Source: Proteiniphilum sp. (GTDB lineage: Bacteria > Bacteroidota > Bacteroidia > Bacteroidales > Dysgonomonadaceae). From it: DNA of 64,000 bases. Below, piece after piece: positions 55,169 to 61,070 of this stretch. The stretch spans positions 26,666 to 90,665 of the forward strand of contig DAINAS010000006.1 in NCBI GenBank assembly GCA_036733365.1, written 5' to 3'. The position numbers and the translations under genes are program-made. Below the pieces are notes generated by a model that made no database searches, had not been told where the DNA came from, and saw nothing but the letters and a program-made list of their open reading frames with translations. The first letter of the stretch is position 1. Every line of letters begins with the position of its first letter.

Positions 55169-55942
55169 TTACTGAATATTGATGCGCACCTCCGTCAAGA
55201 AAGCCTTCATTCGTTCAGAGTCTTTGGTTTCGATGATTCCCAGCAACTCCTTCAGTTTCTCACGTATATTGGTCAGCTGCCCCGGGGTATAAGGGTTGAA
55301 GAGAATCTCGGTGAGCAGGAAGTCATCTTCCGAAAGCAATCCCTGTGCAATATGCATGTGTTTCTTGAAAGTGGTACCGGGTGCATCCTGGTGCTTCATC
55401 ACCGAGGCAAACACCAGGGTGGAAGCAAACGGAATGGAGAGCGAATAGGCGATGGTTTCGTCATGCTCCCTGAAAGAGTATTCAAACACATTCAGCTTCA
55501 GGTGATGGTACAGATCACGAAAAAAGACTTTGCCCAGGTGTGACGACTCGGCAATAATGATGGCGCTCTGGCTGCTCAGGTCGTTCAGACTGGCAAAGGT
55601 GGGTCCAAACATGGGGTGTGTGGATACATAGGGGCGGGTGCGCTCCCGGTAGAACGCCTCCAGCCCGGTCTTCACCGAGGCGATATCGCTCAGGATGCAA
55701 GTCTCCGGCAGATAGGGCAGCACCGCCTCAAAAGCAGGGATGGTGTACTTGAGCGTTGCGGCATTGATCACCAGCTCCGGTGCGAAGGCCTCAACCTCCC
55801 GCGGATCGGTCATCCGCTGCGTGTTGTAAATGAACCGCAGCTTCTGCGGATCGGTGTCGAGCACAGCCACTTCGTGGTCGAAGCTAAGCACATCGGCAAA
55901 GAAGGAACCCATCTTACCGGCTCCAAGGATTAATATTTTCAT
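55169..55942 (-). CDS. tyrA: prephenate dehydrogenase
   Basis: N-terminal Rossmann motif ILGAGKMGSFF, HPMFGP motif; last gene of the aromatic operon. Confidence 0.75.
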   Translation of the reverse strand: MKILILGAGKMGSFFADVLSFDHEVAVLDTDPQKLRFIYNTQRMTDPREVEAFAPELVINAATLKYTIPAFEAVLPYLPETCILSDIASVKTGLEAFYRERTRPYVSTHPMFGPTFASLNDLSSQSAIIIAESSHLGKVFFRDLYHHLKLNVFEYSFREHDETIAYSLSIPFASTLVFASVMKHQDAPGTTFKKHMHIAQGLLSEDDFLLTEILFNPYTPGQLTNIREKLKELLGIIETKDSERMKAFLTEVRINIQ

Positions 55943-55959: not shown

Positions 55960-57030
55960 TTATTTCTTCGCTCTCTCCATCACCACCATCTGCTGACGGA
56001 CCGACTCGGAGTGGATCGACTCCAGAACCTTCTTCACGAAGTCGCCCGACATCTCCAATCGTTCACCCTGATAGGCACGGTCGGTCAGGATCTGGTCGTA
56101 GCGCTGCGTCTGCAGGATTGGCATGTCATGCTCCAGCTTGTACTGGCCAATCTCCCTCGATACACGCATACGCTTAGCCAAAAGCTGCAACAGTTCATTG
56201 TCCAGGTCGTCTATCTGGTCACGCAGCACCGACAGATCTTCCGTCGTCTGCACCGTATCACGGATCACGATGGTATCGAGGATCTCCTTGAGTGCAGCCG
56301 GAGTGACCTGTTGAGCCTTGTCGCTCCACGCCTCGTCGGGGGAACAATGAGATTCGATGATCAATCCCGCGTAGTTGAGATCCAACGCCTGCTGACTGAT
56401 TTTGAAGATCAGGTTGCGGTCGCCGCCGATATGGCTTGGGTCGCAGATCATGGGAAGAGTGGGAAAGCGTCGTTTCAGTTCAATGGGAATGTGCCATTGC
56501 GGTAAATTGCGGTATATGGTCTTATCGGTAGTGCTGAATCCACGGTGTATCACCCCCAGCTTGCGAATACCAGCGTTGTAAAGTCGCTCCAGAGCTCCGA
56601 TCCAGAGCTCCAGGTCGGGATTCACCGGGTTTTTGATCAGGATGGGGATATCCACCCCCTTGAGGGTATCCGCAATCTCCTGCACTGCAAAAGGGTTGGC
56701 AGCGGTACGCGCTCCAATCCAAAGGATATCGACCCCATATTTCAACGCCTCATAGACATGTTTCTCTGTAGCCACCTCGGTGGCCATGTACATGCCGGTC
56801 TCCTTCTCCGCCTGCATCATCCATTTCAGCGCCGGACTACCAATCCCCTCAAAACCGCCTGGCTTCGTACGGGGTTTCCAGACCCCTGCACGGTAGATCT
56901 TTACTCCCACTGCCGCCAGCTGGCGCGCGGTGGTCATCACCTGTTCCTCTGTCTCGGCACTGCAGGGTCCCGCAATCACCAGCGGTCTCTTCGCGTCAAT
57001 GCCCGGCAATAAAATTGATTCGAATTCCAT
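55960..57030 (-). CDS. bifunctional 3-deoxy-7-phosphoheptulonate synthase / chorismate mutase
   Basis: N-terminal KDO8P/DAHP-synthase-like TIM barrel (IAGPCSAE...DPSH) and a C-terminal chorismate mutase type II helix bundle (LRDQIDDLDNELLQLLAKRMRVSREIGQYK). Confidence 0.8.
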   Translation of the reverse strand: MEFESILLPGIDAKRPLVIAGPCSAETEEQVMTTARQLAAVGVKIYRAGVWKPRTKPGGFEGIGSPALKWMMQAEKETGMYMATEVATEKHVYEALKYGVDILWIGARTAANPFAVQEIADTLKGVDIPILIKNPVNPDLELWIGALERLYNAGIRKLGVIHRGFSTTDKTIYRNLPQWHIPIELKRRFPTLPMICDPSHIGGDRNLIFKISQQALDLNYAGLIIESHCSPDEAWSDKAQQVTPAALKEILDTIVIRDTVQTTEDLSVLRDQIDDLDNELLQLLAKRMRVSREIGQYKLEHDMPILQTQRYDQILTDRAYQGERLEMSGDFVKKVLESIHSESVRQQMVVMERAKK

Positions 57031-57114: not shown

Positions 57115-58284
57115 TCAGCGATTCCCCATATATTCCTCAATACGCCTGTAAGCCTCCTGCAGCTTCTCAACAGAGGCCCCCAGCGAGATGCGGATAAACC
57201 GTTCACCGTTGCTGCCGAAGATAAAGCCAGGGGTAAGAAATACTCTTGCCTTTTCAAGCAAATCATTCACAAGCTTTTCACTACCCGATACCTCTGCCGG
57301 CAGCTTACCCCATACAAACAATCCCACCTGCCGGGGATCGAAACTACAGCCAAGCAGCTGCATGATTTTCTCGGCCCAGTCGCGTCGTTCACGATAGATG
57401 CGGTTCATCCCGGCATGCCACTCATCACTGTTCGACAGTGCAGCGACCGTTGCCAGCTGCATCGGTTTGAACTGACCGCTGTCGATGTTGCTCTTGGCCT
57501 TGAGCACCCACTGCACAAATTGCGCGTTGGATGCCAGCATCCCCATGCGCCATCCCGACATGTTATGCGACTTGCTCAGCGAATTGAGCTCGATGCATAT
57601 CTCCTTTGCCCCCGGCACTGAGAGGATGCTCATCGGATGGTCGTTCAAGATAAAACTATAGGGGTTGTCGTGACAAATCACGATCTGATGCTTTTTGCCA
57701 AAGGCTACCAGCTTCTCAAATAGTTCCACCGATGCATTGGCCCCTGTAGGCATGTTGGGGTAGTTGACCCACATCAGCTTCACCCTGCTCAGGTCTCTTT
57801 TCTCCAGAGCCTCGAAGTCGGGCTCCCACCCCTTCTCCTCCAGCAGGTCGTATTCCATCACCTCAGCCCGCAACAGTTGAGATACGGACCGGTATGTGGG
57901 ATAACCGGGGTTGGGAACCAGTACCGCATCTCCGAAGTTCAGGAAAGTCATCGAGACATGCAGGATCCCCTCCTTCGAGCCTATCAACGGCAATATCTCG
58001 GCAGGTGTCAGCGTCACACCATAGAAACGCTCGTACCAATTGGCATATGCTTTTCGCAACTCAGGGATTCCGGTATATGGCTGATAGGCATGCACATCAG
58101 GTTGGCGGGCACTATCGCATAGCATCTCAATTGTCTCCTGCGACGGCATCCGGTCGGGTGCTCCCACCGCGAGGCTGATCACGTTTTTACCTTCGGCATT
58201 CATACGGGCTACCTCAGCCAGCTTCACCGAGAAATAGTATTCTTCTATCGATTTGATATGTGCTGCGGGTTCAATCTTTTTCAT
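57115..58284 (-). CDS. class I/II PLP-dependent aminotransferase (aromatic pathway context)
   Basis: SLSKSHNMSGWRMG PLP-lysine motif, 389 aa. Confidence 0.8.
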   Translation of the reverse strand: MKKIEPAAHIKSIEEYYFSVKLAEVARMNAEGKNVISLAVGAPDRMPSQETIEMLCDSARQPDVHAYQPYTGIPELRKAYANWYERFYGVTLTPAEILPLIGSKEGILHVSMTFLNFGDAVLVPNPGYPTYRSVSQLLRAEVMEYDLLEEKGWEPDFEALEKRDLSRVKLMWVNYPNMPTGANASVELFEKLVAFGKKHQIVICHDNPYSFILNDHPMSILSVPGAKEICIELNSLSKSHNMSGWRMGMLASNAQFVQWVLKAKSNIDSGQFKPMQLATVAALSNSDEWHAGMNRIYRERRDWAEKIMQLLGCSFDPRQVGLFVWGKLPAEVSGSEKLVNDLLEKARVFLTPGFIFGSNGERFIRISLGASVEKLQEAYRRIEEYMGNR

Positions 58285-58305: not shown

Positions 58306-59154
58306 TTACTGTTCATCGGCATTCTTCTCCTCCCGGTACTCACCCAACTGCTTCAGCTTACTGATCAGCGGCGTGATGGCATCGATCGACTGTTGGTAGC
58401 GCTGATAATCGGTAAAGGTGAGATCAACATAAAACTGGTACTCCCACTCACTACCGATGATGGGCAGCGATTGTATACGGGTCAGGTTGATCCCATAGAA
58501 AGAGAGGACCGACAACACCTTCGAGAGTGAACCCTCGTTGTGTGGCAGGACAAATACCAGCGACGACTTGTTGATGTGGTTATCCTTCTGAAGCTCCGGT
58601 AGCATCTCCTCACGTGCCAGGATAAAGAAACGAGTGAAATTGCGTTTGTTCGTTTCAATCCCATGGGCCAGGATCTCCAGACCATACATCTCCGCTGCCA
58701 GCCTGCTGCAGATGGTGGCCGTGCCCTTCATCTCCCGCTCACGAATCTCTTTCGCCGCGAGAGCGGTATCATCATGCTCTACGATCTTCACCCCGGGTAA
58801 TCTTTCCAGAAAATCCTCACACTGCATCAAGGCCATGGGGTGCGACATCACCTCACCAATTTCATCGATGGTGGTGCCGGGAAGGGCTGCCAAGGTATGT
58901 GTGATTCGAAGTTTATGTTCCCCTGCGATACGGAGATGATATTGTTTCAACAAATCATGATTGGGCAGAAGGCTTCCGGCGATCGTATTCTCAATGGCCA
59001 TCACCCCTATCAGTTGCGGATCCTTCTCCGCTTCCTTGAAAATATCGCGGAATGTCTGGCAGGGAACAATCTCCAGCTCTTCACCCTTGAAATAATCGCG
59101 TGCAGCAATCTCATGATAGGCTCCCGGACCTCCTTGAATAGCAACTCTTTTCAT
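58306..59154 (-). CDS. pheA: prephenate dehydratase
   Basis: PDT domain with TRF motif (NFTRFFIL) and a C-terminal ACT domain. Confidence 0.85.
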   Translation of the reverse strand: MKRVAIQGGPGAYHEIAARDYFKGEELEIVPCQTFRDIFKEAEKDPQLIGVMAIENTIAGSLLPNHDLLKQYHLRIAGEHKLRITHTLAALPGTTIDEIGEVMSHPMALMQCEDFLERLPGVKIVEHDDTALAAKEIREREMKGTATICSRLAAEMYGLEILAHGIETNKRNFTRFFILAREEMLPELQKDNHINKSSLVFVLPHNEGSLSKVLSVLSFYGINLTRIQSLPIIGSEWEYQFYVDLTFTDYQRYQQSIDAITPLISKLKQLGEYREEKNADEQ

Positions 59155-59182
59155 TTCTTTTTGTAATTTGCCATATTGTCAT

Positions 59183-59219
59183 AAAAAAATCCCATCGTGT
59201 GATCGACAGGATTTTTTTT
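59183..59219 (-). terminator. candidate attenuator terminator in the pheA leader
   Basis: Minus-strand RNA AAAAAAAUCCUGUCG-AUCACA-CGAUGGGAUUUUUUU forms a 15-bp stem (2 G.U) ending in U7, 28 nt upstream of the pheA ATG. Confidence 0.55.
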
Positions 59220-59268
59220 ATCTGATATGACTTTTAATTTCTTCTCATTTTACATAAAAATCCTGCCT

Positions 59269-59325
59269 TTACCTGCTAAAATAAAAGTAAAACCAGAAAG
59301 AATATGCAAATGTAGAACTGTTCAC
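59269..59325 (-). CDS. candidate leader peptide MNSSTFAYSFWFYFYFSR (aromatic-codon-rich)
   Basis: GTG at 59325, TAA at 59271-59269; 9 of the last 13 codons are Phe/Tyr/Trp. The stop lies 1 nt before an antiterminator arm. Needs experimental or comparative support. Confidence 0.4.
   Translation of the reverse strand: MNSSTFAYSFWFYFYFSR
59307..59314 (-). promoter_or_regulatory. second TACATTTG box (P2) inside the leader ORF
   Basis: Exact TAnnTTTG. The 13-nt context AGTTCTACATTTG matches P1 at 12 of 13 positions. Confidence 0.3.
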
Positions 59326-59353
59326 TTTGTTATCTTTTCATTGTGATAGGGCA

Positions 59354-59361
59354 CAAATGTA
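59354..59361 (-). promoter_or_regulatory. -7 box TACATTTG, P1 of the pheA leader (with TTTG at 59380-59383 as a possible -33)
   Basis: Exact TAnnTTTG on the minus strand 28 nt upstream of leader GTG 59325, with an upstream TTTG 18 nt away. Confidence 0.4.
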
Positions 59362-59478
59362 CAACTTTTTTCGAATACACAAATAAAAATGACAAAAAAA
59401 GAGCAATCCTTCTGTTTCATGCCCCTGAAAAGAACTTCTTTTTATGATAATCCACCGCTAATTTCTGTAAAAAATCTC

Positions 59479-59486
59479 TATATTTG
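59479..59486 (+). promoter_or_regulatory. -7 box TATATTTG (POT transporter)
   Basis: Exact match 49 nt upstream of ATG 59535. Confidence 0.45.
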
Positions 59487-59534: not shown

Positions 59535-61070
59535 ATGTTTAAAAATCATCCTAAAGGACTGCTCGCCGCATCACTGGCGAACATGGGGGAGCGATTTGGT
59601 TTTTACACCATGATGGCGATCCTGACACTCTTCTTAATGACCAAGTTCGGACTGGACGAGACCACCACCGGTATCATCTACTCCATCTTTTATGCATCCA
59701 TCTACCTGCTGGCTCTCGTGGGTGGGTTGCTGGCCGACAAGACCCGCAATTACAAGGGAATCATCATGACGGGCCTGTTGCTGATGTCAGCGGGTTACGT
59801 GATCATTGCCATCCCTACCCCGACACCGGTACCGGCTGACAAGTTCGCCCTGTTCCTTGCAATCAGCTGCTTGGGATTACTGGTGATCGCTTTTGGAAAC
59901 GGCCTCTTCAAGGGGAACCTCCAGGCGCTTGTGGGGCAGATGTATGACGACCCTAAGTACAGCAAGATGCGCGACTCAGGGTTCCAACTCTTTTATATGT
60001 TCATCAATGTGGGAGCTATCTTCGCTCCCTTCCTGGCGGTAGGTGTCCGCAACTGGTGGGTTGAGAAGAATGGTTTTCTCTACAATGCCGACCTGCCGAC
60101 GCTGGCGCATCAGTACCTGGGCAACACCATCACGGCCGAGGGAAGCGAACGTTTTCAGCGACTGGCCGGAGAAGTGGGTTACAGCGGCAGCGACATGACA
60201 GCTTTTGCCGGTGATTATCTCAACGTCTTCACCACCGGCTTCCACTATGCCTTTGCGGTAGCCATTGTTGCGATGCTAATCTCACTAGTGATCTACATGA
60301 TCAATAAGAACCGTTTCCCCGATCCGGCGAACAAACATGCTGCAGCAGCAGGAGGTACAGCGGTGACAGAGATGGACATCAAAGAGGTGAAGCAACGCCT
60401 CTATGCGCTTTTCGCTGTCTTCGCGGTGGTAATATTCTTCTGGTTCTCGTTCCACCAGAACGGGCTCACCCTCACCTTCTTCGCAAAAGATTACACCGAC
60501 CTGAGCCAGATAAGGCTAGACCTGGGCTTCGCGACACTGGAAGGAGCCGAGATCTTCCAGTCGATTAACCCCTTCTTCGTGGTGTTCCTCACTCCAATCA
60601 TCGTGGGACTCTTTGGATGGCTTCGCTCCAGAGGCAACGAACCCTCCACACCACGCAAGATCGCGATCGGTATGGGGATTGCCGCCATTGCCTATGCCGT
60701 AATGGCACTGGGCTCGATGGGACTTCCACTCAAAGGTGAGCTGGATGCTATGGGCGGACTGCCTGATGCTGCCCGTGTCACCCCCTGGTTGCTGATCGGC
60801 ACCTATTTTATTCTGACCGTGGCCGAGCTGTTCATCAGCCCCCTGGGCATCTCTTTCGTTTCGAAGGTAGCCCCTCCCAAATACCAGGGAATCATGCAAG
60901 GAGCATGGTTGGGTGCCACCGCCGTGGGCAACAGCCTGCTTTTCATTGGTGCCATCTTCTACAAATCGATCTCCATGAGTGCCACCTGGATGATCTTCGT
61001 GGTTGCATGTCTCATCTCCATGTTCACCATGCTGGCGATGATCAAATGGCTGGAGAGGATCGCAAAATAG
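59535..61070 (+). CDS. POT/PTR2 family di-/tripeptide:H+ symporter
   Basis: ERFGFYTMMAIL, GGLLADK and FYMFINVGAIFAP PTR2 signatures. ATG at 59535 downstream of a TATATTTG box. Confidence 0.85.
   Translation: MFKNHPKGLLAASLANMGERFGFYTMMAILTLFLMTKFGLDETTTGIIYSIFYASIYLLALVGGLLADKTRNYKGIIMTGLLLMSAGYVIIAIPTPTPVPADKFALFLAISCLGLLVIAFGNGLFKGNLQALVGQMYDDPKYSKMRDSGFQLFYMFINVGAIFAPFLAVGVRNWWVEKNGFLYNADLPTLAHQYLGNTITAEGSERFQRLAGEVGYSGSDMTAFAGDYLNVFTTGFHYAFAVAIVAMLISLVIYMINKNRFPDPANKHAAAAGGTAVTEMDIKEVKQRLYALFAVFAVVIFFWFSFHQNGLTLTFFAKDYTDLSQIRLDLGFATLEGAEIFQSINPFFVVFLTPIIVGLFGWLRSRGNEPSTPRKIAIGMGIAAIAYAVMALGSMGLPLKGELDAMGGLPDAARVTPWLLIGTYFILTVAELFISPLGISFVSKVAPPKYQGIMQGAWLGATAVGNSLLFIGAIFYKSISMSATWMIFVVACLISMFTMLAMIKWLERIAK

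Follow-up and report, generated by a model that had tools for sequence, protein, structure and literature searches.

A classical ribosome-mediated transcription attenuator, responding to charged tRNA-Phe and tRNA-Tyr, is predicted upstream of pheA on the minus strand of a 64,000-nucleotide (nt) stretch of Proteiniphilum sp. DNA (contig DAINAS010000006.1). This stretch is referred to as the window, and all coordinates are window positions. From sequence comparison and fold modelling, the probability of this reading was put at roughly 85%. It rests on the elements read in the sequence, on how they are conserved and covary in relatives, on fold energies, on a constant spacing between the regulatory codons and the antiterminator arm, and on an association with pheA across the phylum. 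From these elements we infer the transcription start site (TSS), termination at the U-tract, ribosome stalling and the starvation response in the window. A preliminary description, made from the sequence alone, had already proposed ribosome-mediated attenuation. Its coordinates for the leader open reading frame (ORF), pairing arms, loop, U7 tract, 28-nt distance to pheA and a mini-ORF all matched the minus-strand sequence. The proposal itself was supported by an ORF conserved in 77 aligned leaders, by covariation in both helices and by the folding behaviour expected under a modelled ribosome.

The leader ORF (pheL-like; 59269..59325, minus strand) was identified by reading the sequence and is conserved in relatives. 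It comprises 18 codons, from GTG at 59325-59323 to TAA at 59271-59269, and encodes MNSSTFAYSFWFYFYFSR. Phe, Tyr or Trp account for nine of the last 13 residues, with five Phe and three Tyr codons in this part. The regulatory aromatic codons (F6 A Y8 S F10 W11 F12 Y13 F14 Y15 F16) occupy 59278..59310, and comparison of leaders placed a nearly invariant FYFYF core at 59292-59278. When all six frames of the window were examined, 13-codon spans with at least 8 aromatic residues occurred only in this ORF. It also ranked first of 850 short ORFs by aromatic content (50%; runner-up 36%).

A short aromatic ORF in an A/T-rich intergenic region, with a GTG start and A/U-rich helices behind it, could have arisen by chance in T-rich DNA, with the hairpin an ordinary terminator or functionless. 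The preliminary description had itself warned that T-rich DNA inflates the Phe count. This explanation did not hold for the codon count: among 2000 shuffles of the intergenic region that preserved dinucleotides, a single one reached the 9/13 aromatic density, and the ORF is conserved in relatives. Conservation and covariation extend across relatives with 39-98% PheA identity, and these comparative data already contradict chance. The hairpin was also considered as the terminator of the upstream gene and rejected; that gene, a peptide permease, is divergent and lies on the plus strand, so no gene ends at the hairpin. A chance origin is hardly credible.

For comparison, one genome per GTDB species was scanned, which yielded 80 pheA loci (67-96% identity) from Proteiniphilum, Fermentimonas, Petrimonas, Seramator, Dysgonomonas and Paludibacter. 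PheA homologues of the window protein were 67-98% identical to it, and the top ones (up to 98%) came from Proteiniphilum-like Dysgonomonadaceae. Enough upstream DNA was available at 78 loci. At each of these a leader ORF preceded pheA, including two loci (L030 and L040) where it was found by reading the sequence. This comparison of pheA upstream regions had been suggested in the preliminary description and gave the predicted result, with compensatory changes in both the terminator and the antiterminator. Leaders were aligned with MAFFT (n=77); start codons and lengths were counted on 75.

Start codons were ATG in 56 leaders, GTG in 16 and TTG in 3. The GTG start, earlier listed as a caveat, is indeed present in the window but is a clade variant of a normal, mostly ATG, start. 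Stop codons were TAA (38), TGA (20) and TAG (19; n=77); on sequence comparison, the stop function is retained while the stop sequence drifts. ORF length was 16-18 amino acids in 72/75 leaders, and the in-ORF indels (-3, +9 with an additional FYF, and -6 nt) were all multiples of three. The peptide consensus was M-x(3,4)-F-[AT]-[YF]-x-F-x-F-Y-F-Y-F-[SNTK]-[RK]-stop. N-terminal residues were freely variable, and outside the aromatic run the peptide was not conserved. Position 11, which is Trp in the window, was W, G, Y, F or C in relatives in a clade-specific manner. Trp sensing is thus not a conserved feature and was rejected. Of the Phe/Tyr/Trp signal first described, the Phe and Tyr parts stand and the Trp part does not. 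Sequence comparison indicates that the invariant signal is the alternating Phe/Tyr run (FYFYF), which fits an operon with both pheA and tyrA.

A 1-nt frameshift near the end of the ORF was found in three leaders: L052, L073, L079 (Dysgonomonas hofstadii). In L052 and L079 the ORF traverses the antiterminator 5' arm (region 2) and stops behind it; the attenuation logic is unchanged by this. The long ORF form within the Dysgonomonadaceae set arises through 1-nt indels. Five further loci (L047, L051, L053, L061 and L035) carried 200-280 nt of unrelated additional sequence between the leader stop and pheA, compared with about 115 nt in the window. The switch was of normal length in all five, which places the additional sequence downstream of the attenuator terminator. 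In L051 and L053 it included a repeat-like stretch, GGGGGTTAGGGGGC.

The core of region 2 (GGCAGGAUUUUU; 59267-59256, minus strand), assigned by reading the sequence, begins 1-2 nt past the leader stop. Region 3 (59204..59218, minus strand) is an arm shared between two helices: it can pair with region 2, through AAAAAUCCUGUC at 59216-59205, or with region 4, an assignment that rests on covariation. Region 4 (CGAUGGGAUUUUUUU; 59183..59197, minus strand) was assigned from the sequence and the minimum free energy (MFE) fold as the 3' arm of an intrinsic terminator, and ends in U7 (59189-59183). The predicted terminator (59218-59183) is a 15-bp hairpin followed by U7, with the loop AUCACA at 59203-59198, and lies 28 nt from the pheA ATG. 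The 196-nt leader folded at -46.3 kcal/mol, compared with -28.5 +/- 3.7 kcal/mol for shuffled sequences (z = -4.84). Comparing the energies of the alternative helices, a check advised at the outset, gave -12.5 kcal/mol for 2:3 and -16.4 kcal/mol for 3:4, together with -21.6 kcal/mol for a third helix, 1:2, described below.

Both helices were supported by the alignment of 77 leaders. The terminator helix was 89% paired, with five pairs changed on both sides. Its covarying pairs included UA 44/CG 26/UG 7, CG 58/UA 14 and GC 50/CG 19/AU 5. Double-change cells numbered 79 against 24 +/- 4 in shuffles, a shuffle statistic inflated by kinship among the sequences. When the partners were slid by 1-3 columns as a control, pairing fell to 42-58%. 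Pairing in the antiterminator reached 87.5%, and four of its pairs had changed on both sides (for example, columns 84/160 with GC 33 and AU 17, and columns 87/157 with AU 72 and GC 3); its slid controls were 37-54% paired. Region-3 alignment columns 157, 159 and 160 covaried with region 2 and also with region 4. As a pattern in the alignment, this three-way covariation is the signature of one arm common to two exclusive helices.

Region partners were then exchanged among 137 distinct leaders. For 2:3, pairing with the leader's own partner gave -15.6 kcal/mol, compared with -11.5 +/- 0.2 kcal/mol with a foreign region 3. For 3:4 the corresponding values were -17.3 and -12.4 +/- 0.25 kcal/mol. 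The observed value was reached by 0 of 200 permutations in both cases. The swap and shuffle controls are uncorrected for shared descent, and their results are read as strong indications rather than as probabilities.

Several minor features of the terminator were also recorded. It is symmetric (A8 tract, stem, U7; 59183-59218), so that the plus strand also reads as a hairpin followed by T8, which could stop antisense transcription emerging from pheA. The A-tract additionally supplies the A-U part of the antiterminator. The MFE fold added an outer helix, GUCAUAU/AUAUGGC (59225-59231 with 59170-59176, minus strand), which brackets the terminator and the U-tract. GTCATAT...ATATGAC was also present in the close relatives L002 and L005; it was not present in L017.

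A further helix involves the ORF itself. In the MFE fold, leader ORF codons at 59317-59285 paired with 59274-59242, beside the terminator. Region 1 (59285..59317, minus strand; MFE fold) forms the 5' arm of this 1:2 hairpin, a predicted anti-antiterminator and possible pause hairpin, and lies inside the ORF. Its 3' arm (59242..59274, minus strand; fold) takes in the stop codon together with the entire antiterminator arm of region 2. The preliminary description had reported no segment that sequesters the first antiterminator arm and had expected the antiterminator to form by default. On the first point this was incorrect: the leader ORF codons themselves are predicted to pair there (-21.6 kcal/mol), and its caveat of default readthrough probably does not apply. 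With this predicted pairing, the full 1:2/2:3/3:4 layout is present. In sequence and in modelled folds, this four-segment layout is the one seen in trp, phe and his attenuators.

Full-length MFE folds with no ribosome contained 1:2 plus the terminator in 77/77 leaders. The window leader still folded as 1:2 with no ribosome and with region 4 absent. The inner helix of 1:2 was 93% paired over the 77 sequences. One outer pair was compensatory, joining the first base of the Ala/Thr codon (GCA/ACA) to a C or U about 50 nt downstream (GC 39, AU 25, GU 3). Per-sequence folds were used for the outer helix instead of column counts, as the MAFFT alignment was judged to be off register for the Paludibacter clade. 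The 1:2 hairpin is less well supported than the terminator and antiterminator.

Ribosome positions were modelled by mask folding, in which bases under the ribosome, up to 12 nt beyond the first A-site nucleotide, were made unpairable; the footprint was taken from general knowledge. With the ribosome stalled at Phe12 or Phe16 and region 4 not yet made, the antiterminator formed in 76 of the 77 genomic leaders. With the ribosome at the stop codon, the terminator formed in 77/77 and the antiterminator in 0/77. The same procedure was applied to 97 metagenomic leaders, whose origin is given below. Stalling gave the antiterminator in 88 of them; at the stop codon the terminator formed in 97/97 and the antiterminator in 0/97. 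In this set the search pattern itself partly ensures a terminator, but it does not ensure the association with pheA or the spacing. Region 2 began 13-20 nt past the last aromatic codon in all 97, with both ORF layouts included. By this model, the onset of region 2 lies just beyond a stalled ribosome in every metagenomic leader.

On this basis the following course of events is proposed. Transcription would probably start about 20 nt upstream of the leader ORF, from a Bacteroidota-type promoter. With Phe and Tyr plentiful, the ribosome would reach the stop codon (59271-59269) and its footprint would reach into the beginning of region 2 (from 59267). Since the start of region 2 would then be masked, region 3 would be free to pair with region 4, and the 15-bp hairpin with U7 would terminate transcription 28 nt ahead of pheA. 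With Phe or Tyr scarce, the ribosome would stall on the alternating codons (59298-59278), melt 1:2 and leave region 2 exposed. The exposed region 2 would pair with region 3 before region 4 is synthesized, blocking the terminator and allowing the operon to be transcribed. If the leader were not translated, 1:2 would keep region 2 and the default would be termination.

Several points weigh against this reading. The support for the window element is wholly computational. A simple terminator scan of the locus did not flag the hairpin, both the terminator and antiterminator helices are A/U-rich, and relatedness by descent among the sequences inflates the shuffle statistics. The terminator is always more stable at equilibrium than the antiterminator (-16.4 against -12.5 kcal/mol in the window), which requires antitermination to be under kinetic control, as it is in the trp leader of E. 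coli. The inner helix of 1:2 varies only between U-A and U-G, which leaves the outer pair described above as its single compensatory pair. With no ribosome and with region 4 absent, MFE favoured 2:3 over 1:2 in 40/77 leaders; default termination thus rests on the order of co-transcriptional folding. Tight coupling of transcription and translation is not known from Bacteroidota, and translation initiation in this phylum proceeds largely without Shine-Dalgarno pairing.

The switch could also be real but set by an RNA-binding protein (TRAP-like or PyrR-like) or by a small-molecule riboswitch, with the ORF a by-product of the U-rich strand of 1:2. The core UUUUACUUUUACUUU hardly varies, synonymous positions included, and forms part of the 1:2 pairing, so that RNA constraints by themselves could maintain it. 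Weak sub-threshold matches to the PyrR and rnk leader models were also obtained. However, the identity of the start, three different stops, indels in multiples of three and the fixed 13-20 nt spacing are predictions of a coding function rather than of RNA structure by itself. Regions 2 and 3 are joined by a spacer of variable length and sequence, which leaves no conserved pocket. No Rfam 15 family reached its gathering score at the locus or anywhere in the window on either strand. At the locus, with E values up to 10 admitted, only sub-threshold noise was seen (rnk leader 24.6 bits, Phe_leader 20, PyrR 19). As regards a riboswitch, T-box or protein-dependent leader, no curated RNA family in Rfam matched the locus or the window, and the region 2-3 spacer was not conserved. 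Control by a protein or small molecule is considered unlikely.

The range of the element was examined with a DNA pattern drawn from the leader only (TTTTAYTTYTAY, gap, ATCCYG, gap, RGGATTTTT), which was searched in metagenome contigs. At least 120 contigs were matched. On 97 of these, a PheA homologue (39-72% identity) began 12-231 nt past the match. Among the remaining matches, three (L090, L094 and L199) encoded a leader peptide of the family type on contigs that ended within 100 nt. Source names in the PheA clusters comprised Barnesiella, Muribaculaceae, Bacteroides sp. CAG:443/Phocaeicola, Bacteroides luti, Alistipes indistinctus and Puia (Chitinophagaceae). Two layouts were found among the 97 metagenomic leaders: the stop lay just before region 2 in 42, as in the window, and behind it in 55. 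In the long layout the stop lay 6-26 nt behind region 2, and the metagenome loci of this type included L108, L111, L113 and L117. The C-terminal tail of the long type is translated region 2 and differs by clade (VKREF, AERDV, SSRVVF, KSGLGL). The two layouts may be alternative solutions to one timing problem.

The features of the family are a TAnnTTTG box, an ORF with alternating Phe and Tyr codons, CNGGAU/AUCCYG/RGGAUUUUU helices and a position directly upstream of pheA-aminotransferase; all of these were present in the window element. From the sequences, we infer that it belongs with a phylum-wide family of Bacteroidota pheA leaders, related by common descent rather than by convergence. A more specific version of this reading sees in the element the local representative of an attenuator family that spans the phylum, is uncurated and has strictly alternating Phe and Tyr codons; it would act as a true dual sensor in which either amino acid alone would open the operon. 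This version is favoured only slightly. Precedent for mixed regulatory codons exists in the E. coli thr (Thr and Ile) and ilvGMEDA (Leu, Val and Ile) leaders, which are multivalent attenuators. As in the window, one leader there serves several amino acids and an operon with several end products. The amino acids differ, and the two codon types of the window alternate strictly (FYFYF).

The closest described counterpart is the Flavobacterium psychrophilum pheA-aspC3 leader, THC0290_N_0195, annotated from transcriptomics as a pheA leader-peptide attenuator (Guerin et al. 2021, PMC9723704, Table S7, SI D9). Its TSS was mapped 6 nt past a TAnnTTTG box; the leader ATG follows 20 nt further on. Readthrough occurred under specific conditions, with a peak of operon expression in minimal nutrient media. 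It had no Rfam hit and was conserved in Flavobacteriaceae (PMC9723704). The two elements share the phylum, the gene order (pheA, then an aminotransferase), F-Y-F-Y codons and a TAnnTTTG box about 25-28 nt ahead of the leader start. The antiterminator (GGGAUUGU/ACAAUCCC) and terminator (AAUCCCGUC...GCGGGAUUUUUUUUU) of F. psychrophilum are of the same design as those of the window. They differ in that the F. psychrophilum ORF has 27 codons and runs through region 2 (long type), whereas the window ORF ends 1 nt before region 2 (short type), and the two PheA proteins are only about 45% identical. The F. psychrophilum element is known from TSS and expression data, and the window element from sequence alone. 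Among the metagenomic leaders, L150, on a Flavobacterium-like contig, encoded MITNNTFFSNNSFYFYWKIGRDCRIVI, a near match to the leader published for F. psychrophilum, MNTNNTFYSNNSFYFYWNIGRDCYMVI.

Other mentions in the literature were few. Outside Proteobacteria, pheL was described as potentially used only by 'Bacteriodes' and Desulfobacterium (Gurvich et al. 2010, PMC3082878). The preliminary description had held that such leaders in Bacteroidota were only predicted and poorly characterised. The second part holds, but the first is too strong in view of the mapped TSS and condition-dependent readthrough in F. psychrophilum (PMC9723704) and the pheL mention (PMC3082878). Bacteroid-trp (RF01692) was reported as a candidate cis-regulatory leader from comparative genomics (Weinberg et al. 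2010, PMC2864571) and interpreted as a tryptophan peptide leader RNA by Guerin et al. (PMC9723704). Like the window element, it precedes an operon for aromatic amino acids in Bacteroidetes; unlike it, it serves the trp operon and forms a separate RNA family, with no match in the window. Leader-like small ORFs in B. thetaiotaomicron were mentioned in general terms only (Ryan et al. 2020). Neither the leader peptide nor 'prephenate dehydratase' was found in the B. thetaiotaomicron transcriptome supplements, searched as text. The peptide string FYFYF was not found in the literature in a relevant sense, and no mutational or biochemical dissection of such a pheA leader in Bacteroidota was found there. 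Attenuators in Bacteroidetes/Chlorobi were reportedly also predicted by Vitreschak and co-workers in 2004.

In mechanism, the window element resembles the pheL-pheA leader of E. coli and other gammaproteobacteria (RF01859). Both have a short Phe-rich ORF, mutually exclusive 1:2, 2:3 and 3:4 helices, which in the window are predicted, and a terminator before pheA, and in both a ribosome at the stop would lead to termination and a stalled ribosome to readthrough. The likeness is in mechanism only, without detectable sequence or model homology: RF01859 Phe_leader scored 20.0 bits (E = 1.5) on the locus against a gathering score of 55, and the locus is not a member. Gammaproteobacterial pheL uses Phe codons only, whereas the window codons alternate between Phe and Tyr. 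Unlike E. coli pheL-pheA, the window operon also includes tyrA, an aminotransferase and a DAHP synthase/chorismate mutase gene, and the leader has a Bacteroidota-type promoter, no Shine-Dalgarno context and a GTG start.

Alternatively, and either alongside cis attenuation or in its place, the strong conservation of FYFYF could reflect an aromatic micro-peptide with a function of its own, or the terminated leader RNA (about 165 nt) could act in trans as a small RNA. Trans-acting products of an attenuator, rnTrpL and peTrpL, are described for Sinorhizobium (PMC6614838, PMC7298713). The peptide is, however, unconserved beyond the aromatic run, the C-terminal extension of the long type merely translates region 2 and depends on the clade, and the element is always found directly upstream of pheA. 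A product acting in its own right is improbable.

Downstream of the proposed attenuator lies a group of four minus-strand genes, whose identities as given in the preliminary description were confirmed by NCBIfam. The first structural gene is pheA, encoding prephenate dehydratase (58306..59154; NF008865, E = 3e-59). It is followed by genes for a pyridoxal phosphate-dependent aminotransferase (57115..58284) and a DAHP synthase fused to chorismate mutase (55960..57030), and lastly by tyrA, encoding prephenate dehydrogenase (55169..55942). Successive genes are separated by 21, 84 and 17 nt. An internal promoter between the aminotransferase and DAHP synthase genes was considered and rejected, as no TAnnTTTG box was found in the 84-nt gap. 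The next listed ORF beyond tyrA is on the plus strand and convergent with it. Given this spacing, the lack of a -7 box in the 84-nt gap and the convergent next ORF, the simplest reading is a single four-gene operon. On its other side, pheA (ATG at 59154) is separated by a 380-nt intergenic gap from a divergent oligopeptide/H+ symporter gene (the peptide permease; plus strand, ATG at 59535, family TIGR00924).

The leader ORF could instead serve mainly to raise pheA translation, by translational coupling or re-initiation rather than through transcription termination. Re-initiation at leader genes has been proposed, including in Bacteroidetes, for stop-to-start distances of about 11-14 bp (PMC4833913). 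In the window, however, the stretch between the leader stop and the ATG of pheA measures 114 nt and includes a strong hairpin with a U-tract, and the pheA start was not sequestered in the folds. Coupling as the main function is very improbable.

Nearly everything established about leader-peptide attenuation comes from Proteobacteria and from a small number of Gram-positive bacteria. As a mechanism it is textbook material and would hold no surprise for a specialist; the Bacteroidota pheA leader family has been noted previously and never dissected. The locus and its relatives provide a clean, conserved and geometrically constrained example of attenuation in Bacteroidota, and the relatives include the human-gut genera Bacteroides/Phocaeicola, Barnesiella and Alistipes, as well as Muribaculaceae. 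They offer a handle on transcription-translation coupling and on the regulation of aromatic amino-acid synthesis in this phylum. If the attenuation reading is true, Bacteroidota, though initiating largely without Shine-Dalgarno pairing, would couple the ribosome to RNA polymerase closely enough for classical attenuation. The element merits experiment for its alternating Phe/Tyr codons, for the occurrence of two ORF layouts and for the coupling of ribosome and polymerase that it implies. It is also a candidate for a new curated RNA family and a possible Phe/Tyr-responsive regulatory part for Bacteroides engineering.

A putative promoter precedes the leader ORF on the minus strand. The putative Bacteroidota -7 box, TACATTTG (consensus TAnnTTTG), was read at 59354..59361. 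A putative -33 element, TTTG, lies 18 nt upstream of it (59380..59383) and would function with it. TAnnTTTG was present in 74/75 related leaders, mostly 27-28 nt ahead of the leader start codon, and TTTG was found 15-23 nt upstream of the -7 box in 52 of these 74. By analogy with the mapped TSS of F. psychrophilum, transcription in the window would start near 59347-59348, upstream of the leader ORF. A sigma-70 consensus scan was uninformative and returned a single promoter-like site (59471-59444) that is not the conserved promoter.

A second exact TACATTTG was present within the leader ORF (59307-59314, minus strand), over the codons Ser-Thr-Phe-Ala. A transcript begun there would be without the leader start codon. 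Among the leader sequences read, this second box was seen only in the window and L001 and is therefore probably chance. The 3-codon mini-ORF (ATG AAA AGA TAA; 59341-59330, minus strand), about 6 nt from the predicted TSS, was likewise confined, among the leaders inspected closely, to the window and L001, and was rejected as a regulatory part for that reason; L002-L004 had ACG at the position of its ATG. Over the whole window, TAnnTTTG occurred 42 times, compared with 26 +/- 5 in shuffles (0/100 shuffles reached 42), an excess that fits a Bacteroidota genome using the -7 promoter box. One copy, at 59479-59486 on the plus strand, lies about 50 nt upstream of the ATG (59535) of the divergent peptide permease.

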